The position numbers and the translations under genes are program-made. This document shows, in pieces, positions 3,081-33,948 of a stretch of DNA of 64,000 nucleotides. Positions within the stretch are counted from its first letter, which is position 1; each line of letters starts with the position of its first letter. The notes under the pieces were generated by a model. That model was not told the origin of the DNA, did no database searches, and worked only from the letters and a program-made list of their open reading frames with translations. The DNA lies in IMG/VR virus record IMGVR_UViG_3300031707_002920, positions 21,904 through 85,903 of that record; one strand, given 5' to 3'. Origin of the DNA: a virus.

Positions 3081-3110
3081 TAATAATCTTATGATTTTTT
3101 AGACAAAAAT

Positions 3111-15765: not shown

Positions 15766-16890
15766 ATGAGAATTGGCTATTCAGCATGGGGATTTATAGG
15801 TGATGGACTCGTAGACTCTCCAGACGGTGGACGTTTAACAAGAGCATTGCTTATTGAACACTTACTTAAAGAAAACTACGACATTATGTGGTTACAAGAA
15901 AATCGTGATGTCGATTATCATAGCATGCCATTATTTAGGCTCTCAGTAAGTAAATCTTACAAAGATGAACAAAGACAAACGCTTTGTAAAATAAAATATG
16001 ATAATGGTTTTCCACAAATTGATGTATTATTCCTTGAATGGCGATGGAAAATACCGGGCAGGAATTGTGACGTTTCTATTGAAGATGCTAAATACACTCC
16101 AGATTATGATAGACAGACGCAATTACTATTACATTACATCAACATGTCAACTAAAATTATCATTTGGGATAAGGATGAAAAACTCACTTTTAATGACGAA
16201 CATTGGCTTGATCATCATAAGAAGCATCAATTTCAAGTCACAATATTGTCGCCTGCGATTTATCCTCCTAAGATAATCTTCGAACGAAAAACGCTATTGT
16301 TTCCGTGTCAGTTAAGTAAGATAAAGGGCACTAAAATAAACAAACGATACGAATATCTTATTGGTTATGTTGGTTCTCAGTATGAGCGCGATGACCAGAT
16401 CTATAAATATATCAATCCTTTTTCTTTTCAATGGGCTCAATTAACTAAACAACTGCAAGTGATATTTGTCGGCAATTGGTTAAAATATGATGATCAGGCT
16501 AAGAGAAATTTAGTCAATTTTCCGCATATTAAATTTGAAGATAGAATCTTACCAAAAGATATGGGAACTATTTATAGTAAATGTTTGGCTTCAGTCTTAT
16601 TATGCAAACAAAACTATGCACGGCATTGTCACATAACACAGAGGATTTATGAACTTGCAATGAACGGCGTGATTGCTATCGGCCTTAAAGAGCAAATAGA
16701 CATTGATAAATTTATTAATAAGTCACTCATAATTTCAGATGCTTATGATCTTGTACAAGTGATCGACATGCTGCGCAGGTCGTCAATTGATTTTCGACAG
16801 CAAATATTAGATGAGCATATCGAAAGATTAGAACCATTTGATATAAACAATGTCATGAACAAGTTTAGAGAAGTACTAAGCCATGCATAG
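15766..16890 (+). CDS. GT-B glycosyltransferase, candidate DNA base glycosyltransferase
   Basis: MRIGYSAWGF.GD...DSPDGG, LFLEWRW, IIWDKD, YVGSQYERD, QRIYE. Confidence 0.7.
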   Translation: MRIGYSAWGFIGDGLVDSPDGGRLTRALLIEHLLKENYDIMWLQENRDVDYHSMPLFRLSVSKSYKDEQRQTLCKIKYDNGFPQIDVLFLEWRWKIPGRNCDVSIEDAKYTPDYDRQTQLLLHYINMSTKIIIWDKDEKLTFNDEHWLDHHKKHQFQVTILSPAIYPPKIIFERKTLLFPCQLSKIKGTKINKRYEYLIGYVGSQYERDDQIYKYINPFSFQWAQLTKQLQVIFVGNWLKYDDQAKRNLVNFPHIKFEDRILPKDMGTIYSKCLASVLLCKQNYARHCHITQRIYELAMNGVIAIGLKEQIDIDKFINKSLIISDAYDLVQVIDMLRRSSIDFRQQILDEHIERLEPFDINNVMNKFREVLSHA

Positions 16891-18502
16891 ATTTGACCAA
16901 AAAAATGTGTCTGATTTCTTTCCGTATCCGACATATAGACAGTATCAATTAGAGACCATTAATAAAATTCAACAACATTTTGTTGATGGTGTTAAAGACA
17001 TTATTATAGAGATGCCTACTGGTTCTGGAAAATCGCCTGTAGCAATTGCATGTGGATTATGGTCAGAGAATTCTTATTGTTTAACTTCACAAAAAATCTT
17101 GCAAGATCAATATATTAAAGATTTCACTGAAGATTACAGGATTTCTGTGTTGAAAGGTCGCAGCAATTATGAGTGCACATTTTTGGGTGATCCTGCAATG
17201 TGTAACGAGTGCTATGAACCTGCCAGAAAGCAATGTTATAAAAACGGAACGTGCCTTTATCAGATTGCTAAGAAAAGAACAATTAATTCTATTATAGCGT
17301 TGATGAATTATTCATACTTTCTGAATGTGACAGATTGTGATCCTAATAAATCGTTCGGTAAGAAGAAATTGTTGATTTGTGACGAGTGTCACTCGCTTGA
17401 GGGCGAGCTTATGGGGCAGGTCGAGTTCATTTTATCAGAATTTATGTTTAAGCGATCAGGGTATCCTGTTGCTATTCCCACATATGAATCATTAGATCAA
17501 TATGAAGCGTGGATAAAAGAAAATATAGAACAAGTGCAAGCGATTTTAAAGAAAAAAAATGATGAGTTAGATAGTTTGAATAGACAGCGAGTGAGTCTTA
17601 GTCGTGAATCTTTTAATTTTAAAAAAATGTCAGGAGAGACGGCTGAACTAGTGTCGCAAGTTGAAGAAATTGATCGTCTTTATCGACGAATGAATACGTT
17701 TTTGAATACTATAGGTTTAGTTGAATGGGTGTTTACGGTCGAAAGAACTGAAAAATTAAAGATGAAGAAAGTGATTTTTAAACCATTGACGATTAATTTA
17801 TTTGCACCCGATTGTTTATTAAATTACGGTGAACAACGACTTTACATGTCAGCTACTATTTTAGATAAAAAGAGTTTTTGTCATAGTCTTGGTATCAATT
17901 GTGATGAAGCTGCTTTTATAAGAGTGCCATCAACGTTTCCTGCTAAAAATCGGAAGATATTTTTTACAAATTCTGGTTTTATGAACTTAGCGAATATCGA
18001 CGATACGTTACCAAATATTGTCAGAGACTTGAAAAAAGCACTGGCATATCATAAGTCTGAAAAAGCACTAGTGCATTGTCATTCATATAAGATTGCAAAT
18101 TACATACAAGAAAATTGTCATGACCATCGGTTGATTTTTCATAATTCAGAGAATCGTGAAAAGATGCTTCAAAAGTTTATGCAATCGACAGATCCTATGG
18201 TTTTAGTTTCGCCGTCTATGACTGAGGGTCTTGATCTTAAAGATGACTTAGCACGTTGGGAAATTATAGTCAAAGTACCGTATTTATATTTGGGTGATAA
18301 ACAAGTATCTAGAAGAATGGCAATTGATCCTGATTGGTACAATTGGCAAACATGCCTGACACTGGTTCAGAGTTACGGTCGCATTTTTAGATCAGAGACT
18401 GATTGGGGAACAGTATATGTATTTGATAGTGGAGCAAGAGGATTTATACAACGTAATGTAAGTATTTTACCACAATGGTTTATCGACGCTTGTCAATTTT
18501 AA
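16883..18502 (+). CDS. DinG/XPD-family SF2 helicase
   Basis: Q motif, MPTGSGKS, KGRSNY.C Cys cluster, DECH, SAT, EGLD, QSYGRIFR. Confidence 0.9.
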   Translation: MHRFDQKNVSDFFPYPTYRQYQLETINKIQQHFVDGVKDIIIEMPTGSGKSPVAIACGLWSENSYCLTSQKILQDQYIKDFTEDYRISVLKGRSNYECTFLGDPAMCNECYEPARKQCYKNGTCLYQIAKKRTINSIIALMNYSYFLNVTDCDPNKSFGKKKLLICDECHSLEGELMGQVEFILSEFMFKRSGYPVAIPTYESLDQYEAWIKENIEQVQAILKKKNDELDSLNRQRVSLSRESFNFKKMSGETAELVSQVEEIDRLYRRMNTFLNTIGLVEWVFTVERTEKLKMKKVIFKPLTINLFAPDCLLNYGEQRLYMSATILDKKSFCHSLGINCDEAAFIRVPSTFPAKNRKIFFTNSGFMNLANIDDTLPNIVRDLKKALAYHKSEKALVHCHSYKIANYIQENCHDHRLIFHNSENREKMLQKFMQSTDPMVLVSPSMTEGLDLKDDLARWEIIVKVPYLYLGDKQVSRRMAIDPDWYNWQTCLTLVQSYGRIFRSETDWGTVYVFDSGARGFIQRNVSILPQWFIDACQF

Positions 18503-18550
18503 GTAGAGCAGCTATATCAATCTACGCAAAGCAGGTTGATTATAAAAGTT

Positions 18551-18766
18551 ATGAGAACTACAATTGAAGTAGCTCCTGATAAACGAAGAATTTGGCGACA
18601 ATGGTGTAAGAAATTTAAATTAAGTAGTGTAAAGTTATTTGATAAATTAATTGAGAAGATCGAGCAACGACAACAACAAGAGTTTTATAATTCATTGCCA
18701 AGACCTATAAAATATGTTAAGCCATTGGAAAATAAAAGAATTAGGAAATTTGTATACAAAAAATAG
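18551..18766 (+). CDS. small basic protein, possibly ribbon-helix-helix-like (copy 1)
   Basis: MRTTIEV strand then helices; immediately upstream of attI-like site. Confidence 0.6.
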   Translation: MRTTIEVAPDKRRIWRQWCKKFKLSSVKLFDKLIEKIEQRQQQEFYNSLPRPIKYVKPLENKRIRKFVYKK

Positions 18767-18777
18767 GTTCATATAAT
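18750..18777 (+). promoter_or_regulatory. sigma70-type promoter (Pc-like) overlapping attI-like site
   Basis: TTGTAT-16 bp-TATAAT; predicted +1 near the GTT at 18783; repeated at 19753-19780. Confidence 0.6.
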
Positions 18778-18789
18778 AACTAGTTGCAC
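18771..18789 (+). other. attI-like recombination site 1
   Basis: ATATAAT-AACTA-GTTGCAC; no hairpin precedes this GTT, and GTTGCACG is complementary to CGTGCAAC at 18961 closing cassette 1. Confidence 0.75.
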
Positions 18790-18822
18790 GCAATAGGCCG
18801 CGAACCATGTTGGAGGTGAATT

Positions 18823-19056
18823 TTGGAAACGAGAATTATTCGTAACGCCAGTTGTAAATGTAGCGATTGCATGGGACCGGAGCGGGGTATCTGCCCTCGT
18901 AAGGGTTTCCAAAATTCACGGAGCACTAAGGAGTCGCGGCCTACAGTCCGGCGAAACGCCCGTGCAACAGACAAAGTGCGCCATGTAGATGATGGCCGTG
19001 TCGTTCCAGTAGATGGGTATGGTCAGCACAGCCACCCCGATTTTTTTCACGATTGA
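18823..19056 (+). CDS. cassette ORF, hypothetical Cys-containing
   Basis: GGAGGTG RBS before TTG; ends inside attC loop. Confidence 0.55.
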   Translation: METRIIRNASCKCSDCMGPERGICPRKGFQNSRSTKESRPTVRRNARATDKVRHVDDGRVVPVDGYGQHSHPDFFHD

Positions 19057-19085
19057 TTACGGCGCACGTTTGTCAACCGTTGTTT
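18962..19085 (+). repeat. attC-like site
   Basis: AAC-A-GACAAA-GTGCGCC...GGCGCAC-G-TTTGTC-AACC-GTT. Confidence 0.85.
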
Positions 19086-19122
19086 GCAATTGTCAATTTC
19101 TCTTATATACTGAGGTGGCGCT

Positions 19123-19362
19123 ATGATGACAGAACGGTGCGGAAGGTGTGCGAATCTAAGTGGGTTATGTGCTATGGTCGGCTGTGGTGGCTTCGTCGAG
19201 AAAGCGCCACTGGAAGCTGTGGAAGAAATTGCCAACAGCACACAACAAACCAATGGCGCAGGGGCTGAAGCCACATTACCGCCCAGGTGCCTCATCACTG
19301 GTTGTTACGACGATGCAGAACCTACATCTGTGTTCTGTGCGTGGCATAATATAGGGCGGTAA
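19123..19362 (+). CDS. cassette ORF, Cys-rich hypothetical
   Basis: GAGG RBS; ORF track. Confidence 0.6.
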   Translation: MMTERCGRCANLSGLCAMVGCGGFVEKAPLEAVEEIANSTQQTNGAGAEATLPPRCLITGCYDDAEPTSVFCAWHNIGR

Positions 19363-19387
19363 CGTCGCCATTGGTCAAACGTTGTAA
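19240..19387 (+). repeat. attC-like site
   Basis: AAC-AA-ACCAATGGCG...CGCCATTGGT-CAAAC-GTT. Confidence 0.8.
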
Positions 19388-19477
19388 GAAATGCTGGCCG
19401 TTCTGAAATTATAGGGCGGCGGCAAAACCAAAACAAGGAGAAAACATGAAACGCATTATCGAGAAGTACGACCACCA
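19381..19477 (+). pseudogene. truncated copy of the cassette at 21274 (5' leader and first codons)
   Basis: Identical to 21274-21370, then fused to repeat copy 2. Confidence 0.9.
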
Positions 19478-19789
19478 ATGGTTTATCGACGCTTGTCAAT
19501 TTTAAGTAGAGCAGCTATATCAATCTACGCAAAGCAGGTTGATTATAAAAGTTATGAGAACTACAATTGAAGTAGCTCCTGATAAACGAAGAATTTGGCG
19601 ACAATGGTGTAAGAAATTTAAATTAAGTAGTGTAAAGTTATTTGATAAATTAATTGAGAAGATCGAGCAACGACAACAACAAGAGTTTTATAATTCATTG
19701 CCAAGACCTATAAAATATGTTAAGCCATTGGAAAATAAAAGAATTAGGAAATTTGTATACAAAAAATAGGTTCATATAATAACTAGTTG
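19476..19789 (+). repeat. 314-bp direct repeat copy 2 with attI-like site 2 (GTT at 19786)
   Basis: Identical to 18473-18786; followed by a different cassette (GTTGTCGG). Confidence 0.95.
19554..19769 (+). CDS. small basic protein (copy 2)
   Basis: Identical to 18551-18766. Confidence 0.6.
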   Translation: MRTTIEVAPDKRRIWRQWCKKFKLSSVKLFDKLIEKIEQRQQQEFYNSLPRPIKYVKPLENKRIRKFVYKK

Positions 19790-19828
19790 TCGGAAATTCC
19801 GCGCAGGTTTTATGATTGGAGGCGGCGC

Positions 19829-20059
19829 ATGAGAGATAGTGATTTCAAACGCAAATTGTTCTGGGAGTGCATCGACAATCTGGGATCGAAGGGGCGTAGC
19901 AGCGCCGCTAAACTGGCGGAACCTGCGCTCCACATCCCACAACAGGGCCAGCACAAAATTTGCCCTCAATGTGGTGGCAATCTTGTGGAGATGTATCAGG
20001 CTGATGTTTACATTTGCAATGATTGCGGTATCAAGGTTACGGGCAAACTTCGTGCGTAG
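19829..20059 (+). CDS. cassette ORF, Zn-ribbon hypothetical
   Basis: GGAGG RBS; CPQC..CNDC encoded in the attC loop. Confidence 0.65.
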   Translation: MRDSDFKRKLFWECIDNLGSKGRSSAAKLAEPALHIPQQGQHKICPQCGGNLVEMYQADVYICNDCGIKVTGKLRA

Positions 20060-20074
20060 CCCGAACCGTTGTAT
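19937..20074 (+). repeat. attC-like site
   Basis: AAC-A-GGGCCA-GCAC...GTGC-G-TAGCCC-GAACC-GTT. Confidence 0.8.
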
Positions 20075-20112
20075 GCAACCGGTCACGCGACCATATTGTA
20101 AAGGGGCGACAA

Positions 20113-20436
20113 ATGACAATCATCCAGGCGTTATCAAGCATTCGCGGTGAGTTGGAGGAAGCGGAGCGCAAGTTCCCCTCGTTTCCTACAGACCCGGTAC
20201 ACGCCGCCGCAATAGTGGTTGAGGAAGCTGGTGAGCTACAACAGGCAGCATTGCAGTTTACGTATGAAGGCGGCGGCTGGGCTGAGTTGCACAACGAGGC
20301 TGTGCAGGTTGGCGCGATGGCGCTCCGCTTTCTTTGTCACATAGATTCGATGAAGAGTCGTCCCTCCGAGCAGGTGGAGCGCGTGCCCGGCAGCATACAA
20401 CAGGGCCAGCACGAAACGGCGGCTGACAAGGGGTAG
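20113..20436 (+). CDS. cassette ORF, MazG-like nucleotide pyrophosphohydrolase
   Basis: HAAAIVVEEAGEL...EAVQVGAMALRFL. Confidence 0.7.
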   Translation: MTIIQALSSIRGELEEAERKFPSFPTDPVHAAAIVVEEAGELQQAALQFTYEGGGWAELHNEAVQVGAMALRFLCHIDSMKSRPSEQVERVPGSIQQGQHETAADKG

Positions 20437-20482
20437 GGGATTATAGGCCGCCGCATCGTGCGAGTGGCCCGGGACGTTGTAA
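20395..20482 (+). repeat. attC-like site
   Basis: AAC-A-GGGCCA-GCACGA...TCGTGC-GAG-TGGCCC-GGGAC-GTT. Confidence 0.85.
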
Positions 20483-20548
20483 GAAATTCGCCCCGCTTTG
20501 AGAATATTTAGGCGAGCGCGAAAACCAAAAACAAAAAAGGAGAAACAA

Positions 20549-20884
20549 ATGCAAGCAGGACCGGTATCGATATTTCAGTCCCCGAATATTGTAAGGGACC
20601 TTCGTGTCTTGCCCGAGTTTAAGACCGTTGCACAACAATTTCGAGATGATTTAGGGCACAAAATGGTGGAGCACAAAAAGAAAATCAAAACTGACGGTAA
20701 TAAACTGTGTGGATTTATTGTGTCTCCTGAGTACAAAGCTATGTTACTTACTTTTTGCCAGGACCTTGTTCAGCTACCTACTATTATGGGTGAGTTACCT
20801 ATGCTGTACGGGATGCCCATTGAAGATGGAGAGGTCTCAAATATCGCGTTCAAATTTGAAAAAGACGCGCTCGCAGGACACTAA
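20549..20884 (+). CDS. cassette ORF, hypothetical
   Basis: AAGGAG RBS. Confidence 0.7.
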   Translation: MQAGPVSIFQSPNIVRDLRVLPEFKTVAQQFRDDLGHKMVEHKKKIKTDGNKLCGFIVSPEYKAMLLTFCQDLVQLPTIMGELPMLYGMPIEDGEVSNIAFKFEKDALAGH

Positions 20885-20902
20885 GGAGGCGGGGCGAACA
20901 TC

Positions 20903-20995
20903 TTACAACACAGCAAGGGATGCCAGAAACGCAGGACATTAAGGATTGAATTTTATTATAGGCGTTTCCAGCACCCGTTGCTGAACGCGTTGGTT
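20903..20995 (+). repeat. attC-like site (86 bp identical to 21726-21811)
   Basis: AAC-A-CAGCAA-GGG...CCC-G-TTGCTG-AACGC-GTT. Confidence 0.85.
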
Positions 20996-21035
20996 GAAAT
21001 TCCAGTCGATTTATTTTATTGAAAGGTTGCGAATT

Positions 21036-21248
21036 ATGTTTGTTCCAATTTGGCTGCTTATCGTCTTATCGGGGTTTGGTTGCTGGGGCACACTTATATT
21101 CATCAATGCCATTCGCAACAGGAAATCTAAGGTGGTATCTCCTTCCGCATTCGCACAACAGGCAAAGTGTGCCATGCTTCCGTGTCTCGGCTATTTAGAA
21201 TCTGAGTGTGAAAATTGTAGCAACTACAATCTGTACCGTAAACCGTAG
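21036..21248 (+). CDS. cassette ORF, membrane-anchored Cys-rich hypothetical
   Basis: AAGG RBS; N-terminal TM helix. Confidence 0.6.
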   Translation: MFVPIWLLIVLSGFGCWGTLIFINAIRNRKSKVVSPSAFAQQAKCAMLPCLGYLESECENCSNYNLYRKP

Positions 21249-21280
21249 CGGCACGGCACACATTTGCCGAACCGTTGTAA
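21153..21280 (+). repeat. attC-like site
   Basis: AAC-A-GGCAAA-GTGTGCC...GGCACAC-A-TTTGCC-GAACC-GTT. Confidence 0.85.
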
Positions 21281-21338
21281 GAAATGCTGGCCGTTCTGAA
21301 ATTATAGGGCGGCGGCAAAACCAAAACAAGGAGAAAAC

Positions 21339-21689
21339 ATGAAACGCATTATCGAGAAGTACGACCACCAGTTTATCAAAGATGGTAAGCGCATTTTCTG
21401 TACCTATGTTACTGTGCCATTTTCAGAGTTGCCTGAAGACTGTGATTTTTCTGGATTGGATGTGTCTATTATCAACGTGCTGTATGATGACTGTCACATC
21501 GCTGTTACGGGGTTTGATAGCAATCAAAACGGTATCTCAGTAGAGATACCCCCTACGCTGAAATTTCTATTTTATAAGGCAAGGGAGCAAGGTCAAGCGG
21601 TGTGTGCTGAATTGCTGACGAAGCATAACTTTGAAACAAACTGCATCAAGTTCAAAAAGGATATAGGGTACAGTAACACGGTAGCATAA
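21339..21689 (+). CDS. cassette ORF, hypothetical
   Basis: AAGGAG RBS. Confidence 0.75.
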   Translation: MKRIIEKYDHQFIKDGKRIFCTYVTVPFSELPEDCDFSGLDVSIINVLYDDCHIAVTGFDSNQNGISVEIPPTLKFLFYKAREQGQAVCAELLTKHNFETNCIKFKKDIGYSNTVA

Positions 21690-21730
21690 GAGAGCCGCCG
21701 CCAAGACATTAGGGATACGGCCAGCACATC

Positions 21731-21821
21731 TTACAACACAGCAAGGGATGCCAGAAACGCAGGACATTAAGGATTGAATTTTATTATAGGCGTTTCCAGC
21801 ACCCGTTGCTGGGCGTTGGTG
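21731..21821 (+). repeat. attC-like site
   Basis: Same body as 20903-20995. Confidence 0.85.
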
Positions 21822-21847
21822 GAAATAAACTTTTCTTTGGAGGTTAT

Positions 21848-22114
21848 ATGTTTGCCGAATTTGACAAGGTGATTAGGTGCCTTGCGTTGGAGTTACCCGA
21901 GTCCGTACATGCCGATGTTGTGGCGAAGTACGGCAAACTGAAAGCTGAGGTGGAAAAGTTTACATCCACCAACAGCGCTATGGATGCAATAAACGCTTAC
22001 ATTAAGGAATATGATAGCAAGCTGATTACTACTCCCGATGAAAAATGTGCATTGGCGGTGTGTGAATTTACGGATAAGTATGCTAATATTTTTAGGCGTT
22101 TACTGCACCAGTAG
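21848..22114 (+). CDS. cassette ORF, hypothetical
   Basis: GGAGG RBS; C-terminal half encoded by attC. Confidence 0.7.
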   Translation: MFAEFDKVIRCLALELPESVHADVVAKYGKLKAEVEKFTSTNSAMDAINAYIKEYDSKLITTPDEKCALAVCEFTDKYANIFRRLLHQ

Positions 22115-22128
22115 CGCAGACGTTGGGT
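21967..22128 (+). repeat. attC-like site
   Basis: AAC-A-GCGCTA-TGG...CCA-G-TAGCGC-AGAC-GTT. Confidence 0.85.
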
Positions 22129-22165
22129 GCAATTCGCGCCCGACCATATGATAGGCGGTTTCGCT

Positions 22166-22453
22166 ATGAAGATATGTCGAAAGTGTAGTATCGTTTACGA
22201 GAATCGTACTTGCCCGCTGTGTAATCTGCGCAAGCACGATAATCTTGTCCACGACTTCATCGAGTCAAAGGGACGAAGTCTTGTTCGGGAGTTGGTAGCC
22301 TATTTGCAGCACCGCGAAACCGCAGCAGATAGCGGAGCGGGCGCGAACAGCACCCAACATTCGCAGCACAAAAGTTGCCCTACATTCAACCGAGATTGTC
22401 ATTTCTCTGTTGTCAAGATACAGTGTACGAATGCCGGAGATTGTCCATGTTAA
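22166..22453 (+). CDS. cassette ORF, Zn-ribbon hypothetical
   Basis: CRKC..CPLC. Confidence 0.65.
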   Translation: MKICRKCSIVYENRTCPLCNLRKHDNLVHDFIESKGRSLVRELVAYLQHRETAADSGAGANSTQHSQHKSCPTFNRDCHFSVVKIQCTNAGDCPC

Positions 22454-22489
22454 ACGGGCAACCTTCGTGCGGTGCGGTGAACGTTGGTG
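22352..22489 (+). repeat. attC-like site
   Basis: AAC...CGCA-GCAC..GTTGCCC / GGGCAAC..GTGC-G-GTGCG...GTT. Confidence 0.75.
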
Positions 22490-22533
22490 TAAATTTCGGT
22501 CGCTCTAAAACACGAATTATAGGAGGCGCAAAA

Positions 22534-22809
22534 ATGTCAGGAACGATTTATCATACGTGTTCGGTATGTGGAAGCGAAATGTATCCGAAGATTGGAGGGC
22601 GATCAAACGGCGACACCATAACAGAGTTTGTCATGGTGCCGTGTAAGATTTGCGCCTCTGAAAAAGAGGAATCCGCTCCCTCCGCATCCACCAACAGCGC
22701 TATGGTGTCATTGTGCTTAAAATGTAAATATACTTTTTCTTGTATAATGGCTGGTGAACACGTGCGAGAATCTTGTCCTACAAATGAGTTCGCACAACGG
22801 CACCAGTAG
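22534..22809 (+). CDS. cassette ORF, Zn-ribbon hypothetical
   Basis: AGGAGG RBS; CSVC..CKIC. Confidence 0.7.
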   Translation: MSGTIYHTCSVCGSEMYPKIGGRSNGDTITEFVMVPCKICASEKEESAPSASTNSAMVSLCLKCKYTFSCIMAGEHVRESCPTNEFAQRHQ

Positions 22810-22823
22810 CGCGGACGGTGGTG
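22689..22823 (+). repeat. attC-like site with mutated core (GGT)
   Basis: AAC-A-GCGCTA-TGG...CCA-G-TAGCGC-GGAC-GGT. Confidence 0.8.
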
Positions 22824-22850
22824 TAAATAAACCGCGCTTGGAGGTTATAG

Positions 22851-23087
22851 GTGGCCGCCGATGAAGTGCTTCGATTTATGATCCGATGGTTTGCGCGACA
22901 CGATACGCCGCCGACGGTTCGCCAGGTATGGAAAGCGGCCACGAAAGCAGCGGAGGCGCGGTTTACATCCACCAACAAAGCAAGTGCGCCATGCCCACAG
23001 TGTGTAGATTTTGGCGCTATTCCGCCGCTTGTCAACTATTGTAAAACCTGTGGCCGTAAGCTACATGAGCACGGCGCACGTTGCTGA
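22851..23087 (+). CDS. cassette ORF, hypothetical
   Basis: GGAGG RBS before GTG. Confidence 0.6.
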   Translation: MAADEVLRFMIRWFARHDTPPTVRQVWKAATKAAEARFTSTNKASAPCPQCVDFGAIPPLVNYCKTCGRKLHEHGARC

Positions 23088-23097
23088 ACCGTTGTAA
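22970..23097 (+). repeat. attC-like site
   Basis: AAC-A-AAGCAA-GTGCGCC...GGCGCAC-G-TTGCTG-AACC-GTT. Confidence 0.85.
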
Positions 23098-23147
23098 GAA
23101 ATGCTCACCATTTTTGAATTTATGGGTGGGCGCAAAAAGGAGACCTA

Positions 23148-23468
23148 ATGCAGAACGTTTACGATGTTTTAAAATACAGGTTGTCTTTTATCTATGTTGT
23201 GTTAGCCTACACCTATTTGGTGTTAGCCTACATTTTTTGTATCATCATTAGTCCTTTGGGATTATTTTTAATGCTTTTTGAAAAACCTAAAATATGTTGT
23301 GTATGTAATAAGCGTATTGGTAAAAAAGAAGCTTGGACAAGTTATATTCATAGACCTGCTCATTATTCGTGTGTAGAAAACAAATGGTCATACTGGTATC
23401 AATTTGGCCCTATGGATAATCCTGATTATTGGCGTTATTTAGGTAGGAGTGCGCCCACAGAACAATAA
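23148..23468 (+). CDS. cassette ORF, membrane protein with CxxC/HxxC
   Basis: AAGGAG RBS; long hydrophobic N-terminus. Confidence 0.7.
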   Translation: MQNVYDVLKYRLSFIYVVLAYTYLVLAYIFCIIISPLGLFLMLFEKPKICCVCNKRIGKKEAWTSYIHRPAHYSCVENKWSYWYQFGPMDNPDYWRYLGRSAPTEQ

Positions 23469-23486
23469 GGAAATGGTGAGCACATC

Positions 23487-23556
23487 TTACAACAAACAAA
23501 TGGTGCCGAAGACTAAATCGTGAGTACACGACTTCACCATTTGTTGGACGTTGTAC
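23487..23556 (+). repeat. attC-like site (short, 70 bp)
   Basis: AAC-A-AACAAATGGTG...CACCATTTGTT-GGAC-GTT. Confidence 0.85.
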
Positions 23557-23600
23557 GCAAGTTTGGCGGTTCTGAATTTGATAGGCCGCCGAGGAGAAAT

Positions 23601-23974
23601 ATGGCATACCTTCATTGTCACAAGTGCGGCTGGTCACAGGATGATTTTTGGTATTGGCGGTGGTCTGGCCTCAAACAGTTTTGGAGGTGGCGGCATATGC
23701 CATTTGGCTATAATCCCGTTTCTCTTATTCTCGAAGATTTTGCCGAATACTGGAAGCCGCGCATGATAGGAATGGACTGTGTTTGGGCGCGTGAAAATGG
23801 TTTTAAAAGTAGTAATATTTTTCTTGGCATATTATGCTTTGGTCAATGGGTCGTCATGCGCGGCGTGTATTTAGTCAACGGTGGTGGTTTGACGATCAGT
23901 TTAAACGGGATTATAAAAACAATAAGGCCAAATGTCCTTCGTGCAAGTCACCAGATGATTTTGATATAGACTAA
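23601..23974 (+). pseudogene. cassette ORF, Zn-ribbon protein with probable 1-nt frameshift near 23820
   Basis: MAYLHCHKCGWSQDDFW... continues in the shifted frame as FSWHIML...KCPSCKSPDDFDID*. Confidence 0.6.
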
Positions 23975-24011
23975 TCGGCGGCAGAAGAATATTGAAACCG
24001 CCAAACCAGAC

Positions 24012-24094
24012 GTACAACAGCCGCAGCTTGAAACGGCTTTACACTAATGATTATGTTTTTGTAGGCCGCATCAAGCGTGCGGCAAACGTTGTAG
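24012..24094 (+). repeat. attC-like site
   Basis: AAC-A-GCCGCA-GCTTGA...TCAAGC-G-TGCGGC-AAAC-GTT. Confidence 0.88.
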
Positions 24095-24143
24095 TCAATG
24101 CCGTGCCGAGTCTTTATTGTAGGTGCGGCCATAAGGAGCAAGT

Positions 24144-24371
24144 ATGTTTTCATGGATGCATCGTGGTAAAGTTGAACGACCTATGTCCGAATTTCATGCC
24201 GAGTATATGGCCACACAGAGAGCAAAAGAGGAGTCGGCACGTCACAGCCTACAACAGCTAAAGGCTGAAATTGCCGCTACTATGCTTCCAGCTATTGTGG
24301 CATTAAGTAAAGGTGATATGATTACAGTCGCTAAATGTATTGACGAACTGCGGCAACTATCAGCCGTTTAG
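24144..24371 (+). CDS. cassette ORF ending QQLKAEIA...LRQLSAV
   Basis: AAGGAG RBS; stop TAG within attC right arm. Confidence 0.65.
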   Translation: MFSWMHRGKVERPMSEFHAEYMATQRAKEESARHSLQQLKAEIAATMLPAIVALSKGDMITVAKCIDELRQLSAV

Positions 24372-24383
24372 CGAACGTTGGTT
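24249..24383 (+). repeat. attC-like site
   Basis: AAC-A-GCTAAA-GGCTGA...TCAGCC-G-TTTAGC-GAAC-GTT. Confidence 0.88.
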
Positions 24384-24420
24384 GAAATTCCAGTCATGCT
24401 TTTTATGTTTGGAGGCGAAC

Positions 24421-24639
24421 ATGCTGTACTTTATCATAGGATGTCTAATAATCGGGTTGTTTATCTCGTTTTCAATAGGTTGGTGGTGTGGCGAACGGCA
24501 TGTTCGCAGAAACACTATGGTAGGCATTCCTTCCACATCAACCAACAGCAAAAGTACGCCATGTAAATGCACCTCAGTGCCGTTGGTAATATCTGAGAAG
24601 TGTAGATGTCGTATCTGTGGTCGAGTGTGGGTTCAGTAA
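24421..24639 (+). CDS. cassette ORF, membrane-anchored Cys-rich hypothetical
   Basis: GGAGG RBS; TM helix. Confidence 0.65.
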   Translation: MLYFIIGCLIIGLFISFSIGWWCGERHVRRNTMVGIPSTSTNSKSTPCKCTSVPLVISEKCRCRICGRVWVQ

Positions 24640-24667
24640 CACGGCGTACATTTTGCGGACGTTGTAA
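24540..24667 (+). repeat. attC-like site
   Basis: AAC-A-GCAAAA-GTACGCC...GGCGTAC-A-TTTTGC-GGAC-GTT. Confidence 0.85.
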
Positions 24668-24725
24668 GAAATGCGGTTGGCTCTGAAAATTATAAGCCGC
24701 CGCTAAAATCAAAACAAGGTATCAC

Positions 24726-25121
24726 ATGAAATTATCATCCTGCTCTCAAAAATTATATGGTAAACCTTTTTCAGATCTCACAGACTCTGAAAAAATAACA
24801 GTTAGAAAAGAAACTGCAAAATTAACTGTAGAAGAAGAACTCGAAAAACAAACCAAACGCGAACAAGAGTGGCATGACAGAATCGAGGATCCTGGACAAT
24901 GGTTCTGCCCCCGATGCGGTCATAAACTAGAACCGGTAAGCAAGGACAATGAAGACTGGGGAGATTTTTGTAGCGGATACCATGAGGAGCACGGCACTTT
25001 CTGGTTTCTATGCTCTAACAAAGACTGCACTTACAGTGAGGCTCCTCTTGTCGTCCATCATCCTGTTTATGGATGGCAATGCAGATCAGGAGATAGTTGG
25101 GCTATTGGTTACGTCAAATAA
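24726..25121 (+). CDS. cassette ORF, Zn-ribbon hypothetical
   Basis: CPRC..CSNKDC. Confidence 0.75.
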   Translation: MKLSSCSQKLYGKPFSDLTDSEKITVRKETAKLTVEEELEKQTKREQEWHDRIEDPGQWFCPRCGHKLEPVSKDNEDWGDFCSGYHEEHGTFWFLCSNKDCTYSEAPLVVHHPVYGWQCRSGDSWAIGYVK

Positions 25122-25162
25122 AGGCAGCGGCGGCGGGAAAGTAAGGAAGCCAACCGCACATC

Positions 25163-25235
25163 TTACAACAAATGCATGGCGGGGAGTACCCGCAAATTTG
25201 GAGTACCAAACTTCGCCATGCATCGGACGTTGTAG
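25163..25235 (+). repeat. attC-like site (near-identical to 26485-26557)
   Basis: AAC-AA-ATGCATGGCG...CGCCATGCAT-CGGAC-GTT. Confidence 0.85.
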
Positions 25236-25266
25236 TCAATTGTCGAGCGCAAAGAAAGGAAATTAT

Positions 25267-25497
25267 ATGCCCGCCGAAGAATTGCTTCCGTGTCGTAAAT
25301 GTGGGGCTCCTGCTGCGCCGATAGCTCCACCGAAAGATGGCTGGTCGTGTTTAATACACTGTTCAAAGTTTTGCGGTTATCATGAGCATGAAGGAACGGT
25401 AGAGAAAACGGTTCTTGCGTGGAATCGGCGGGCGGACACTAAGGAGTGCGCTCGCCAACAGCCTACAACAACCGTATGCCAAAATGTCGACGAGTAA
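25267..25497 (+). CDS. cassette ORF, Lar-like (restriction alleviation) Zn-ribbon protein
   Basis: ELLPCRKCG..A...IHC..C....A WNRR pattern. Confidence 0.65.
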   Translation: MPAEELLPCRKCGAPAAPIAPPKDGWSCLIHCSKFCGYHEHEGTVEKTVLAWNRRADTKECARQQPTTTVCQNVDE

Positions 25498-25739
25498 CCG
25501 ACGTGACTATGAACGCTCAGATTTTCAGTTCCCTGAGAAAACACGGAAAAGATATGTTGGATGTCTCCTGCTTAGCTAAAGAATTAAAAAAGGGTCTTAT
25601 GGGGACGATGTGGGGTGCTCGCGTGTGGGTTCATAGAGATGCTACAGAAATTAGGTGTTACGGAGAAAATAGTGTTGAGTTTGAAAAGCAATTCCCTTTT
25701 CTCAAGGAGTCTAAAAGAGTTCTCAAAATTAAAGACTAA
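25476..25739 (+). CDS. hypothetical protein (possible capsid-protein-like fragment)
   Basis: ORF track; MNAQ..SLRK.G.D.LD...ELKKGLMGTMWGA. Confidence 0.5.
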   Translation: MPKCRRVTDVTMNAQIFSSLRKHGKDMLDVSCLAKELKKGLMGTMWGARVWVHRDATEIRCYGENSVEFEKQFPFLKESKRVLKIKD

Positions 25740-25770
25740 AAGCCACAAACGAAGAGAGAGGAGGGATGTG

Positions 25771-26160
25771 ATGAGCCGGTCGTACTTTACAACACAGAAA
25801 ATTTCACGTAAGATATTTCCTAATAAAGTGGGAGATAGCATCCTACTTAAAAATGGAGAAAAACTAACTATTGGATCAGATAGAAAGGATATATCTGGAT
25901 CATTCTATCTGACGGATGGGATAGCAAGTGTGTGGTTGTATTTCGATAAGGGCCTTCTCTCTATGTACGATATAAACAATACATTTGCATGGAATGGTAC
26001 TGGAGAGCCATTGCTGAAAAAAATCCGATCATACGTGCGCAAACCAAAAGCAAAAGAGGCACGTCCTGTGCCTAAGAGCCGCCACAAGGACACTATGGTA
26101 GCGCGAAAAATAGCAGCCAACAGCCACAGCCCAAAACAGTGGAAGTTGACTAAGGACTAA
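25771..26160 (+). CDS. cassette ORF, hypothetical
   Basis: GGAGG RBS. Confidence 0.65.
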   Translation: MSRSYFTTQKISRKIFPNKVGDSILLKNGEKLTIGSDRKDISGSFYLTDGIASVWLYFDKGLLSMYDINNTFAWNGTGEPLLKKIRSYVRKPKAKEARPVPKSRHKDTMVARKIAANSHSPKQWKLTKD

Positions 26161-26204
26161 TTTTATTATAGTCCGCTGCATCGGGCGTGCGGCGGACGTT
26201 GTAC
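26115..26204 (+). repeat. attC-like site
   Basis: AAC-A-GCCACA-GCCC...GGGC-G-TGCGGC-GGAC-GTT. Confidence 0.8.
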
Positions 26205-26257
26205 AAAATTTAACCGCGTCTTGGATTTATAGCCGGGGCGCAAAACAGGAGAAAAAC

Positions 26258-26479
26258 ATGAAAGACACAGAGTTGAGAATTATCAGCGACGGTACTGTTG
26301 CTGGCACACAGGTGGTGGATTCTAAAGGTAACAGGGTCAAATTAGTACAGAAAATAAAATGGGAGTTATCCCTATCGTCTGGTATATCTAAAGTTACATT
26401 GGAAATTGCCAAAACACCTATTGATGTCATCGCCAAAAAAGCAAGAGCGCCCCGGAGGAACATTAAGGAACGCGGTTAA
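26258..26479 (+). CDS. cassette ORF, hypothetical
   Basis: AGGAG RBS. Confidence 0.75.
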   Translation: MKDTELRIISDGTVAGTQVVDSKGNRVKLVQKIKWELSLSSGISKVTLEIAKTPIDVIAKKARAPRRNIKERG

Positions 26480-26484
26480 ACTTC

Positions 26485-26557
26485 GTACAACAAATGCATG
26501 GCGGGGAGTACCCCCAAATTTGGAGTACCAAACTTCGCCATGCATCAAACGTTGTGC
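26485..26557 (+). repeat. attC-like site
   Basis: Same body as 25163-25235 with one internal difference. Confidence 0.85.
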
Positions 26558-26589
26558 GAAATAACCGGCGAACCATATTGGAGGCGCGA

Positions 26590-26919
26590 ATGATTCACAA
26601 ACACGATCTGCGTACCGCTATCAGCGATCTCGGGCAGGCTCTGGAGCATGTCGAGCACTATAGTGGTAGGCCGGAAGTTTTTTGCCTTAAGCAGCTTTTG
26701 GTCAATCCACTTTCGTACGCGCAGAACAATGGGAGTCGCCGGTTACATCGCACAACAGCGAAAGTGCGCAATGTCAACACAATTTTCAAGAGTCTATTTG
26801 TATTCGCTGTGGTAAAAAATTGTGATGCCACAGCGCACGTTTCGCGAGACGTTGGTTGCAATGGTCTTCTTAAATTTATTATAGGCGGCGCAAATGGCAA
26901 TTCCATTTTTCAAATGTAG
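26590..26919 (+). CDS. cassette ORF, hypothetical (3' end uncertain, reads across attC)
   Basis: GGAGG RBS before ATG 26590. Confidence 0.45.
   Translation: MIHKHDLRTAISDLGQALEHVEHYSGRPEVFCLKQLLVNPLSYAQNNGSRRLHRTTAKVRNVNTIFKSLFVFAVVKNCDATAHVSRDVGCNGLLKFIIGGANGNSIFQM
26750..26857 (+). repeat. attC-like site
   Basis: AAC-A-GCGAAA-GTGCGC...GCGCAC-G-TTTCGC-GAGAC-GTT. Confidence 0.85.
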
Positions 26920-27130
26920 TAAACATGGTGTTGTGAAGTTCAGGGTTATTCACGAGTGCGAGGTATGCGCCGCTGAAAACCGCTGTACTCAGCCCACAGA
27001 CAACCAACATACGCAGCTTGCAATTGCAGCTCTTCGCGGCGCGTTGTCTCGGTTGCCCGTCAATCTTGGCATGGTAGATCAGATATTGGTTGCCTTCGAG
27101 GAAGAGCTGCAACAGCAAGCGAGTGCGTAA
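26894..27130 (+). CDS. cassette ORF; C-terminus shared with 63336-63701
   Basis: QHTQLAIAALRGALSRLP...EELQQQASA. Confidence 0.65.
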   Translation: MAIPFFKCSKHGVVKFRVIHECEVCAAENRCTQPTDNQHTQLAIAALRGALSRLPVNLGMVDQILVAFEEELQQQASA

Positions 27131-27140
27131 AACGTTGGCC
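27002..27140 (+). repeat. attC-like site
   Basis: AAC-A-TACGCA-GCTTGC...GCAAGC-GAG-TGCGTA-AAAC-GTT. Confidence 0.85.
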
Positions 27141-27260
27141 GAAACTCCACGGCCAAAACGAATATAGATAGGCGGCATTATGCGGCCAAAGCGCCGCACT
27201 GCGCATAATCGCGGGCGTTGTACGCAATGGGCTTCTTAAATTTATTGGAGGTGGTTGCTT

Positions 27261-27497
27261 ATGTCAAAATGCAATAGTTGCGGTCGTGAGCCTCTTGAAT
27301 ATGTAACAAGGTGTGTGCGTTGCGGAGCGGCGCAACCACTGGAAAGCAGCGGTACTCAGCCCACAGACGTACAACAGCTAAAGGCCGAAATCGCCATGTG
27401 TGCGGCGTTGCTTGAGCCTTTATTCGGGGCGACTGAGGAACAAAGTAAGGTCATTACCGATGTCACGCAAAGACTGTGGCGACTATCAGCCGTTTAG
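27261..27497 (+). CDS. cassette ORF, Zn-ribbon, ends QQLKAEIA...LWRLSAV
   Basis: GGAGG RBS. Confidence 0.65.
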   Translation: MSKCNSCGREPLEYVTRCVRCGAAQPLESSGTQPTDVQQLKAEIAMCAALLEPLFGATEEQSKVITDVTQRLWRLSAV

Positions 27498-27509
27498 CAA
27501 ACGTTGTAT
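27369..27509 (+). repeat. attC-like site
   Basis: AAC-A-GCTAAA-GGCCGA...TCAGCC-G-TTTAGC-AAAC-GTT. Confidence 0.85.
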
Positions 27510-27541
27510 GCCATTTACATTTTCTCGGAGGTTATAGGCAC

Positions 27542-27763
27542 ATGGCTATATGCGGTACGAATCAATGCGTAGAGTGCGAGCTGTATATACACTGCATACG
27601 ACATGTGCGCGACGTAGTTCCGCCATGTGCAAAAAATGTAAACCAGCTAAAAGCCGAAATTCGCGCATTGCTAAACGACAATTGTGAGTTTTACGAAAGT
27701 AACGCTTCGTTAAGTAACATTAGCGCGTTTTTGTTCAAATTGCGCGAACTATCGGCTGTTTAG
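27542..27763 (+). CDS. cassette ORF, Cys-rich, ends QLKAEI...LRELSAV
   Basis: GGAGG RBS. Confidence 0.65.
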   Translation: MAICGTNQCVECELYIHCIRHVRDVVPPCAKNVNQLKAEIRALLNDNCEFYESNASLSNISAFLFKLRELSAV

Positions 27764-27776
27764 CAAATCGTTGTGC
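27637..27776 (+). repeat. attC-like site with eroded inverse core
   Basis: GCTAAA-AGCCGA...TCGGCT-G-TTTAGC-AAATC-GTT. Confidence 0.75.
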
Positions 27777-27812
27777 GCCATTAGAACCAGTCTTTATATC
27801 GAGAGGTAAAAC

Positions 27813-28046
27813 ATGTTTGCTTTGCAGTTAGTAGCACTCGTGCTGATTCTGTCTGCCGCTGCCCTCATAGTTACGATGCTTTTATTGGGTGTCGTAAGTT
27901 CGTTTTCGTCAAGTAAATGGTTCTGTACATCAATGGGTTGGCATCGTCAGCCAGACTCCATAGGCTTTGATGGCTGCTCGATGCTTGGTTGCTGTCCTCG
28001 GTGCGGCAAACATGTTTTACTGGATAGTCAAGGTAACTGGTTCTAA
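27813..28046 (+). CDS. cassette ORF, membrane-anchored Zn-ribbon
   Basis: GAGG RBS; WFC..MGWH...FDGCS...CPRCGK..L.DSQGNWF. Confidence 0.75.
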   Translation: MFALQLVALVLILSAAALIVTMLLLGVVSSFSSSKWFCTSMGWHRQPDSIGFDGCSMLGCCPRCGKHVLLDSQGNWF

Positions 28047-28077
28047 CAGCGCACAACAAATAGACAAGGAGATTTAT

Positions 28078-28386
28078 ATGGCGCGCAAGATTGTAAAGTT
28101 CGATGTTCAGCAGGTGCCGAATGATTATTGGAGTCAGTGTCACTACATATCGTGGTGTCTGTGCGACGACGGTACTATGTGGGAATTGCAAGATAATGAA
28201 AGCGCGTGGCGTCAGTTGCCTGTACCGGGGTGCGCGCCGGACACTGTGGAAGGCGCAAATTTACATCCACCAAGTGTGCCAGTTTGCCCTTCATGGTGTA
28301 AGGATACGTCAAGTGGTACGTGGGGGTGTTTGAAGGGCAAACCAGCACACATTTTGAAAGGTGGCGATCATGTCAACAGACATTAA
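28078..28386 (+). CDS. cassette-derived ORF, hypothetical
   Basis: AAGGAG RBS; degenerate inverse core TTACATCCACCAAG at 28261. Confidence 0.6.
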   Translation: MARKIVKFDVQQVPNDYWSQCHYISWCLCDDGTMWELQDNESAWRQLPVPGCAPDTVEGANLHPPSVPVCPSWCKDTSSGTWGCLKGKPAHILKGGDHVNRH

Positions 28387-28723
28387 CGTAGGTTTGGGAG
28401 AGTTTAAACTATTAGAGAGATTTGTGGTAGCTATGGAGCGAATCGCCACCAAACTGGAGGAAATCGCTCCTTCCACACCAACTAACAAAAGTGTGCCATT
28501 ATCTAAAACTAGTTATAAATTTCCAGAAACTGGAGTCTTTTTGGATATCCCTGTCAAAGCTCATTGGGTTCATAAAAATGTTAGTGAGATGAAAGAGGTC
28601 CGTATTTTTGGTAACATTTTAAAACTGGCTGAAACTTATGACATAATGATAACGCGGTCAGATTCTGAAAAATTGGTAATTTATATCGATGAGCCAGGAA
28701 AAAAATTCCGAATAAGAGGTTAA
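28370..28723 (+). CDS. cassette-derived ORF, hypothetical
   Basis: Contains attC-type peptide APSTPTNK. Confidence 0.55.
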   Translation: MSTDINVGLGEFKLLERFVVAMERIATKLEEIAPSTPTNKSVPLSKTSYKFPETGVFLDIPVKAHWVHKNVSEMKEVRIFGNILKLAETYDIMITRSDSEKLVIYIDEPGKKFRIRG

Positions 28724-28813
28724 AAGGATATTTTATGATCTGGATAGAGGTAAACAATTTGGAATTATTGTCAATGTGGAAACAATGTGTACTTTTTAGA
28801 ATTGGAGGGTGCA

Positions 28814-29089
28814 ATGAAAGTTTTGCCGTTGTGTGATACGTCTGGACACGATATGGAGATTGTTGCTGAAACAGACTTTGAGGCGGAGTGGCTTAAATGT
28901 CATTTCAAGGTTTGGCGCGGTGTAGATGGATTTGTTGATGATACAACAGTAGGTGGTGTTCGCCTCAAAGTCAAGAGCGCATGGTGGGATTGCACTAGAG
29001 CACTGGCGGAAGCGCACACACAGCCTACAACAGCGCCATGCGGTACGGGGCAGAAGCCCCAAATTGCCGAAGCGTCAACTTCCGCATAG
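28814..29089 (+). CDS. last cassette ORF, hypothetical
   Basis: GGAGG RBS; GCCTACAAC inverse core at 29023, right core degenerate (AAACTTGG). Confidence 0.65.
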   Translation: MKVLPLCDTSGHDMEIVAETDFEAEWLKCHFKVWRGVDGFVDDTTVGGVRLKVKSAWWDCTRALAEAHTQPTTAPCGTGQKPQIAEASTSA

Positions 29090-29372
29090 CGCAAACTTGG
29101 AAGAAAAATGAAACTTACATCGTTTGCGTAACTCAGGCCGGTTCGTGATGCAGCGATGCGTGTCGTTGAGGCTCAAACAGCGCCTCAATGCCGCTATTGT
29201 TTAAGCTTCATTGATGATTCTCATAAATTTATAGTTTTAAACTGTATATAGTAGCTAAAAATGTGTACAATATAAACTAATATCCCACTCAGGTATGTCG
29301 TATTTAAATACTCTGTTTGTGGTAGTTTTTAATGTAATCACATGAATATGAAAAACAAAACAGAAGAAGAAA

Positions 29373-30632: not shown

Positions 30633-30837
30633 AAGGTGAATACATTTTTTAACATTATTAACGAAAAGGATAACATGTCTAAAAGATATCGCAAATGTGA
30701 TGATCACGATATAAAAGATTTTTCATATCTTCTACAAACTTACGGGATTCATTGGGAAAATGCTGATAAAATTCTCAAAGCAAAGACGGCGCATGAAAAA
30801 GAAAAAAATGAAGTAAATAAGTAAGAAAGATTGTGCT

Positions 30838-33754: not shown

Positions 33755-33948
33755 TTCATTTTTAACAGCACTTACAGCACTTTTTAAAAAATATTCAAAA
33801 AAACAATTAGCGACAATGTCATTTGTAGAATTTACGATCTTGCGAGCGGGAAAGCCCACGACTTCAGTCGTGGGATGAAAGCGAGCAATAGATAAGTCGA
33901 ACTCTTCTATGAAAATATAGTATATTAGATAAACGGGAGGTATCTAAT

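Follow-up and report, generated by a model that had tools for sequence, protein, structure and literature searches.

Integron arrays are usually compared between strains, so that the order and the site of the events that shaped them are inferred, and tandem duplications by illegitimate recombination are known in large lytic phages of the T4 type. Two further kinds of cassette array have been published from phages, namely clusters of attC sites lacking an integrase (CALINs), which are defined by a minimum of two attC sites (Qi et al. 2023, PMC9892861), and the promoter-early stem-loop (PeSL) cassettes of T4-type phages (Arbiol et al. 2010, PMC2839356; Comeau et al. 2014, PMC4122927). Here, we describe a 64,000-nucleotide stretch (the window) of a virus contig that IMG/VR lists for a sediment metagenome (record IMGVR_UViG_3300031707_002920; length, 85.9 kb; estimated completeness, 43%), in which an integron-like array of small cassettes follows a helicase gene. 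A 314-bp sequence is present twice at the upstream edge of this array. In our judgement, it probably reflects a recent 1,003-bp tandem duplication in a huge phage, which brought together two variants of the array whose cassettes had been exchanged at C|GTTG (the bar marks the point of exchange). The parts of the locus on which this reading rests are listed below (ORF, open reading frame).

16883..18502, plus strand: backbone helicase gene of the DinG/Rad3 type (Pfam Helicase_C_2, ResIII, DEAD)
18473..18786, plus strand: repeat copy 1 (A1), with the helicase 3' end, a 71-aa ORF at 18551-18766, TATAAT at 18772-18777, the palindrome AACTAGTT at 18778-18785 and GTTG at 18783-18786
18783..19078, plus strand: cassette c1, with no convincing ORF, self-complementary ends and an attC-like hairpin at 18962-19085
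19079..19380, plus strand: cassette c2, with an ORF at 19123-19362 (79 aa) and a hairpin at 19240-19387 that overlaps the 3' part of the ORF
19381..19477, plus strand: Z', a truncated copy of cassette Z with the 5' arm, the ribosome-binding site and the 11 first codons, identical to 21274-21370
19476..19477, no strand: new duplication junction, with Z codon 11 fused in frame to the last helicase codons
19476..19789, plus strand: repeat copy 2 (A2), with the copy of the 71-aa ORF at 19554-19769, TATAAT at 19775-19780, AACTAGTT at 19781-19788 and GTTG at 19786-19789
19786..21273, plus strand: cassettes c3 to c6, with borders at 20068, 20476 and 20989 and ORFs at 19829-20059 (zinc ribbon), 20113-20436, 20549-20884 and 21036-21248
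21274..21814, plus strand: full cassette Z, with an ORF at 21339-21689 (116 aa) and a 3' arm plus hairpin at 21695-21821

The two repeat copies are identical at 314 of 314 bases, and neither direct comparison nor a repeat search extended the identity on either side; the first bases past the copies are C at 18787 and T at 19790. Both copies end in AACTAGTTG, and unrelated sequence follows each, as a preliminary description of this DNA, made from the letters alone, had reported. An exact repeat of this length in 64 kb cannot arise by chance. It begins with the last 30 bases of the helicase gene (18473-18502), and the 71-aa ORF within it has no family match. A second pair of identical segments joins 19380-19477 to 21273-21370 (98/98 bases), preceded by different bases (..GGTCAAA|C and ..GCCGAAC|C, respectively); this identity had been noticed earlier, and we place its start one base further left than the 19381 and 21274 given then. 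The two pairs share 2 bases, 19476/19477, and together make up a head-to-tail tandem duplication with a period of 1,003 bp, the second copy of which runs on into different DNA. Since the copies show 0 differences over 412 bases (repeat copies plus Z'/Z), the duplication events are recent.

At the new junction, 19476/19477, GACCACCA is followed by ATGGTTTATCGACG, and the 11 first codons of the Z ORF (MKRIIEKYDHQ) stand in frame with the last helicase codons. Comparison of cassette Z at this point (GACCACCAGTTTATC) with the helicase (TACCACAATGGTTTATC) confirmed the loose microhomology proposed at about 19476: the 2 shared bases lie within a loose 14-nt microhomology, the longer context of which is ACCACCAGTTTATC in Z and ACCACAATGGTTTATC in the helicase. 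This loose microhomology points to illegitimate recombination rather than a site-specific event. The few-base junction of imperfect homology, the head-to-tail repeat and the double depth described below are all features of T4-type tandem duplications; unlike in those, the two copies here differ by whole cassettes, which makes the event informative. The duplication itself is an ordinary type of event, and its value lies in what it preserves.

The number of copies was evaluated from the assembled contigs of sequencing runs, without raw reads; run X1 accounts for 87% of the sampled words, and runs X5-X24, with small shares, were left out of the contig comparison. A 14,973-bp backbone contig of X1 (depth, 41.1) stops at 18502, 30 bases into the repeat, which is expected of a k=31 graph in which the repeat has a second entry. 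The X1 contig of c1 (depth, 46.8) begins at 18757 and so includes the last 30 bases of the repeat, and the c3-c4 contig of the same run has a depth of 45.0. The repeat itself, for which the value was estimated from the bin average, reaches about 80 compared with 41-47 in the flanks, or approximately 2-fold. With two entries, two exits and double depth, two tandem copies per genome are the simplest reading, and the full depth on all three flanks makes a collapse of two strains unlikely. Contig topology and depth in X1 fit a duplication that is real in the assembly. They do not show the population-level shuffling within this phage that had been envisaged: the depths agree with a single dominant arrangement, and the many alternative joints belong to other genomes, in which the backbone of this phage is missing. 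Contig joints with sides of <30 bases were regarded as motifs shared with other genomes and were not counted as shuffling within the phage.

TATAAT-AACTAGTT-G closes each copy of the repeat, the GTTG being at 18783-18786 and 19786-19789, and the end of the repeat is the upstream edge of the array. In contigs of X1 and X3, c1 is found behind a different hairpin, joined at 18783, and in a 1,745-bp contig of X4, c3 is found behind other sequence, joined at 19786; thus, the repeat ends at a genuine cassette border. AACTA|GTTG is a fixed entry junction, whose two copies are followed by two different cassettes and have no intI beside them. The preliminary description saw here two attI-like sites. 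We find one site, copied by the illegitimate event, and it appears attI-like by position only: its 3' part is unfolded (z +1.07), which also led us to reject an AT-rich hairpin flagged there by a hairpin scan; it has no neighbouring integrase gene; it was not seen adjoining the other arrays from metagenomes described below; and neither its 26-mer nor the 71-aa ORF had a match in IMG/VR. Five bases separate the perfect TATAAT (18772-18777 and 19775-19780) from the entry GTTG downstream, and a TTGTAT precedes it at a distance of 16 bases. Transcription into the first cassette could start from this putative promoter, which was absent from the output of the generic promoter scan. Different proximal cassettes in front of the same distal Z are the pattern that would be expected of polar insertion at the entry site, seen here in a single case.

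To locate the points of exchange, we compared related arrays. A pattern for the 5' arm of the cassettes retrieved 89 metagenome stretches, of which 80 were analysed; 49 (plus 3 added by eye) contained arrays with the same cassette and hairpin families in other orders. Breakpoints were taken from an all-against-all comparison of approximately 50 loci, using segments at least 93% identical, and the counts include contigs that are not independent. Informative left ends began 1-4 bases before the G of GTTG in 24 of 36 cases, and right ends ended 2-5 bases after it in 10 of 30, while the random expectation is about 5% per 11-nt window. Cassette Z, for instance, is preceded by four different hairpins (in the window and in L070, L100 and L140), with identity beginning at (A)CGTTG and unrelated sequence to the left. 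A second, rarer exchange point lies directly after CAACA (5 of 30 right ends). By these comparisons, cassette exchange maps to the C|GTTG core and less often to CAAC|A, and the tight clustering of breakpoints without flanking homology favours a site-directed reaction. The crossover at GTT claimed earlier holds, both at the ends of the repeat copies and across arrays, mostly as C|GTTG; it is not confined to G|TT of R', as it is at attC sites.

The hairpins do not always stay with one gene. The N-terminal ORF module of cassette c9 is joined at CAAC|A to three different hairpin modules, and this module is at least 96% identical in the three arrays (window 22122-22482; L113 3481-3719 and L141 1944-2167, in re-oriented copies). 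Conversely, two unrelated ORFs share a hairpin on their 3' side (25158-25233 and 26480-26555; 93% identical). Thus, a hairpin usually, not always, travels with its upstream ORF; the earlier claim that each hairpin does so is right for most shared cassettes and fails for c9. Hairpin arms also encode protein C-termini, for example QLKAEI...LSAV in c14, c23 and c24, so that a site-directed exchange swaps protein tails too. Exchange at both feet of the hairpin fits a recombinase that can use either strand, and it also fits a PeSL-like model in which phage enzymes cut the base of a cruciform.

The array comprises about 28 small co-oriented ORFs in units of 267-568 bp. A unit starts with GTTGK, a -35-like GCAAT/TTGAAA, a TATAGG box and a ribosome-binding site and ends in a hairpin of 70-162 nt with the layout YACAAC-A-stem...stem-RRAC(C)|GTTG. 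The left CAACA is present at 19/19 tabulated sites and the right GTTG at 17/19 (the site at 22816 has a degenerate GGTGG). Like an attC site, each is closed by an inverted R''/R' pair, for which the full 7-mers (RYYYAAC and GTTRRRY) fit only loosely, as in TTACAAC and GTTGTAA. Seventeen sites have 9-nt stems with at most one error, and imperfect stem and length agree with attC sites (about 55-150 nt). Of three hairpins compared with shuffled sequence, two were by far the more stable (z -2.9 to -6.0), among them that of c2 (z -2.9 on the plus strand and -4.4 on the minus strand); the third, that of c1, gave z values of -1.0 and -1.8. The minus strand was slightly more stable for all three. The spacer is one-sided, with 1 nt after CAAC and 4-5 nt before GTTG, and the 0-1 bulged bases are, in our reading, on the L' arm. 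Canonical attC sites have an unpaired spacer on both sides and carry on the L'' arm the extrahelical bases that set the choice of strand; in the placing of these bases, the array hairpins would be their mirror image.

The left CAACA falls inside the ORF in 11 of the 16 tabulated ORF-bearing cassettes. It translates as QQ or TN at the tabulated sites and, in our reading of the sequence, as PTT in c17 and c28; being read in several peptide forms, it is a DNA signal and not a peptide motif. In one cassette family, the two ends of the cassette are complementary over about 45 nt and form three stems with conserved internal loops, and the stems covary. Duplexes between a cassette's own 5' and 3' arms had a mean of -22.0 kcal/mol, compared with -9.2 for arms of different cassettes, and the own partner ranked first in 12 of 16 distinct cassettes. 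An Rfam search of 18000-31000 found no match in the array. Generic scans for sigma-70 promoters and terminators showed no enrichment at the borders, where few promoters were called, and the hairpins lack T-runs. Cassette c13 (23601-23974) is seemingly frameshifted, with the N-terminal CHKCG and the C-terminal CPSC of one zinc-ribbon protein in different frames.

In outline, and judged by structure, the array would qualify as a CALIN. It shares with integrons and CALINs the co-oriented single-ORF units, each closed by an imperfect AAC-to-GTT hairpin; exchange at GTT, with complementarity between the start of a cassette and its own AAC end; and ORFan cassettes, with DNA methyltransferases in related arrays. 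Hairpin families common to unrelated ORFs are also seen in chromosomal integrons, and the lack of a nearby integrase is that of a CALIN. Compared with the published phage CALINs, with their minimum of two attC sites (PMC9892861), it lies in a huge phage and has about 23 sites. It departs from integrons and CALINs in the promoter-like stretch of each cassette, the one-sided spacer, the covarying complementary ends, the second exchange point CAAC|A, often inside an ORF, and a cassette pool restricted to phages; and, unlike in integrons, its entry site has no adjacent intI.

The restriction of the pool to phages was evaluated in several collections. Neither the helicase-to-c6 stretch nor 8 kb of the array had a DNA match in GenBank phages (50,697 records). 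Among representative genomes of 185,579 bacterial and archaeal species, the cassette family had a single real match, and 12 of the 13 pattern matches were due to chance. The real match is a 4.5-kb contig (L156; 1552-2240 and 2296-4279) binned with a Prolixibacteraceae metagenome-assembled genome (MAG). This contig carries a cassette of the array's family and, about 55 bases past the cassette border, a group II intron (RF02005, 103 bits) with a reverse-transcriptase ORF; in the rest of the MAG, the border motif occurs only at chance level. Scans of IMG/VR with the hairpin-plus-core and 5'-arm patterns returned just chance matches in coding sequence and were discarded. Cassette Z has only seven clusters of homologues, every one of them metagenomic.

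The history that we infer would start from two genome copies, one with c1-c2 and the other with c3-c6 between the entry site (AACTA|GTTG) and Z. An illegitimate crossover would then have joined codon 11 of Z from one copy, at a loose microhomology, to the 3' part of the helicase gene from the other, to give helicase-A-c1-c2-Z'::helicase'-A-c3-c4-c5-c6-Z, with both proximal cassette sets retained in one genome; a 1-kb circle formed likewise and then integrated by homology would be an equivalent route. Microhomology would have had no part in the earlier replacement of cassettes, which, as in integrons, would have taken place at the 3' foot of attC-like hairpins, where the conserved C|GTTG core lies; its likely agent would be a structure-specific recombinase supplied in trans. 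The suggestion that two array variants with different cassette orders had been joined is thereby retained in part, in that the simplest history needs two versions differing between the entry site and Z, but the join itself is illegitimate. Overall, the preliminary description is partly supported.

Several points weigh against this history. Regarding the agent, the 85.9-kb contig, about 43% of the genome, has no match to IntI (TIGR02249) or Phage_integrase (PF00589); the two closest relatives have no integrase above the cut-off; and no tyrosine recombinase recurs among 130 ORFs flanking related arrays. The design of the sites is unlike that of attC, with the one-sided spacer, few extrahelical bases on the other arm and a second exchange point. 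As for the duplication, the depth of the repeat is an estimate, only contigs were compared and no molecule was observed to span both copies, and X1 is probably the sample from which the contig itself was assembled. Finally, a duplication followed by replacement of cassettes in one copy would yield the same end state.

Candidates for the recombinase were considered and set aside. A weak Phage_integrase match in the 416-kb relative is a type IB topoisomerase, and the phage contig has no such enzyme. The IS200/IS605 TnpA of the window was rejected, the hairpins of its element, CCCACGACTT(C/T)AGTCGTGGG (at 33.8-35.4 kb), being unrelated to those of the array. The complete element extends over 33800-35410, with TnpA at 33949-34344, TnpB at 34341-35366 and near-identical end hairpins at approximately 33855-33874 and 35389-35408. 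The ORFs flanking related arrays include IS607 TnpA, TnpB, NAD-salvage enzymes, RNA ligase, patatin and DNA methyltransferases.

An alternative that we consider rather doubtful, yet the best placed of the four we weighed, dispenses with a site-specific recombinase: the units would be PeSL-like, and the phage's recombination or junction-resolving enzymes would act on a short conserved or cruciform-forming sequence. Like PeSLs (PMC2839356, PMC4122927), the array has intergenic stem-loops, each followed by a -35/-10-like stretch, that recur on either side of ORFans in the variable part of a large phage of lytic type. In both, the genes between the units turn over by gain, loss and swapping, for which small circles are a plausible intermediate. 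Among the phage's own proteins are RecA-like, gp32-like and endonuclease I-like ones, the searches yielded no gene for a recombinase, and exchange at both hairpin feet (CAAC|A and C|GTTG) would be expected if the base of an extruded cruciform were cut. However, PeSL crossovers are spread over various places within the element (PMC2839356) and ascribed to homologous recombination, whereas here two thirds of the left ends fall within 4 bases at a 5-base core. The sequence on the far side is unrelated, leaving just 5-7 bases of homology. Moreover, PeSL stems are GGGG...CCCC terminators with consensus sigma-70 promoters, whereas the array stems are long and variable, without T-runs and with TATAGG as the -10-like box, and neither promoters nor terminators are enriched at the borders.

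We regard it as unlikely that the duplication came first, such that a helicase-A-c3-c6-Z genome duplicated the segment from helicase' to Z' and c3-c6 of the first copy were later replaced by c1-c2. The end state is the same as by the two-variant route, and tandem duplications are to be expected of a phage that encodes RecA/UvsX-like and gp32-like proteins and replicates through concatemers. But this order of events needs at least one extra step and the persistence of a 1.9-kb duplicated intermediate, and the replacement must have been limited to one copy, where no remnants of c3-c6 are seen. It also requires cassette exchange at GTTG.

An assembly artefact is very unlikely. It would mean that coexisting strains (helicase-A-c1-c2-Z... 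and helicase-A-c3...) had been threaded together and that no genome has two copies of A. The source is indeed a short-read metagenome assembly, which was inspected as contigs, and a 314-bp exact repeat exceeds the usual k-mers. Nevertheless, two strains would split the depth of the helicase, whereas the depth was 41.1 for the helicase, 46.8 for c1/c2, 45.0 for c3/c4 and about 80 for the repeat. The Z'::helicase junction, with only 2 shared bases, is not one that a de Bruijn assembler could create, and the end of the X1 backbone contig at 18502 reveals a second entry into the repeat in the reads. Least probable of all, and close to negligible, is that the 1,003-bp unit A-c1-c2-Z' is a separate circular molecule co-assembled into the phage contig: the graph path from A through c1-c2-Z' back to A does form a cycle and mini-circles of PeSL are known in T4-type phages, but these are reported at about 1 in 100,000 virions (PMC2839356), and a by-product circle would not be expected at genome depth (46.8 versus 41).

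The duplication is placed in the following genomic setting. The backbone carries genes of a huge lytic-type phage, including those for a primase, helicase, endonuclease I-like protein, 5'-3' exonuclease, thymidylate synthase, intein-bearing Pol III alpha, gp32-like protein, RecA/UvsX-like protein and several TnpB proteins. The closest cultured relatives are jumbo phages, the nearest being Bacillus phage G, with 35% helicase identity. Between the helicase and the exonuclease block lie the 71-aa ORF, the 10.3-kb array and a TnpB gene, and the GC content of the array is 41-50%, compared with about 33% in the backbone. The distal part of this interval is as follows.

21815..29100, plus strand: remaining array of about 20 more units, with higher GC and a last, degenerate border AAAC|TTGG at approximately 29094
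29373..30632, plus strand: TnpB (IS605 OrfB-type) gene directly 3' of the array (Pfam OrfB_IS605, Cas12f1-like_TNB)

The two nearest relatives (L004 and L005; contigs of 62.8 kb and 416 kb, with syntenic helicase homologues of 82% and 68% identity) are syntenic on both sides of the array, and in tblastx the synteny picks up again at approximately 30680. In these relatives, the interval at the position of the array is only 2.6 kb and 1 kb, and the array is absent. The border motif CGTTGKNNGMAAT occurs 14 times forward and 0 times in reverse in the phage contig and once in each of the two relatives. One X1 contig joins 29274 to 30649 via 37 other bases, without TnpB, and another continues into the TnpB gene; the joint could be a TnpB-free variant or a paralogous locus, between which the contig depths do not discriminate.

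Further features were noted in passing. Outside the array, about 0.9-1.2 kb before the start of the window, lies a solitary cassette (G000:C1:20727-21027), which has nearly the same 5' and 3' arms as c16 (24661-25170), a different ORF between them and a partial hairpin on its left. An empty site for it was sought in the relatives and the search was dropped, as there is no synteny there. A 518-aa ORF at 59877-61433 has a weak TnpB-related match (TIGR01766, E 4e-5), and 80% identical copies of it adjoin cassette arrays in L122 (2123-3613, minus strand) and L140 (approximately 3043-3519 in the re-oriented copy). Pol III alpha (35551-41528) is divided between two ORFs, with a match to an intein-splicing domain. 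The contigs of related arrays carry genes for DNA methyltransferases (N6-adenine and C5-cytosine), for a PARP-like protein and for an Mrr-type nuclease (L116:3385-4245, L127:1002-1829, L123:1822-2868, L095:1326-2198 and L089:3091-4104), a cargo that suggests phage-host conflict.

The locus holds, in one molecule, two alternative proximal cassette sets between the same fixed flanks, which differ at 0 of 412 bases; this implies that cassettes at the entry edge turn over rapidly compared with point mutation. The locus also fixes the exchange point to a 5-base core, and the array is a 10-kb phage-borne cassette pool that is common to many sediment phage contigs. Tentatively, and with the balance of our own judgement still on the other side, huge sediment phages may run their own IntI-independent, integron-like capture system. 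In such a system, two kinds of module would assort separately at the CAAC/GTTG core halves: ORF modules (GTTG...CAAC), each with its own promoter and with self-complementary ends that covary, and hairpin modules (CAAC...GTTG), which often encode the C-terminus. New cassettes would enter at the fixed AACTA|GTTG behind TATAAT. If this is true, the duplication preserves two histories of acquisition at the entry site that were independent of each other, and the fact that hairpins and ORFs assort separately would show how attC-type sites become attached to genes. If confirmed, these findings would bear on that attachment and on how large phages renew their accessory genes.

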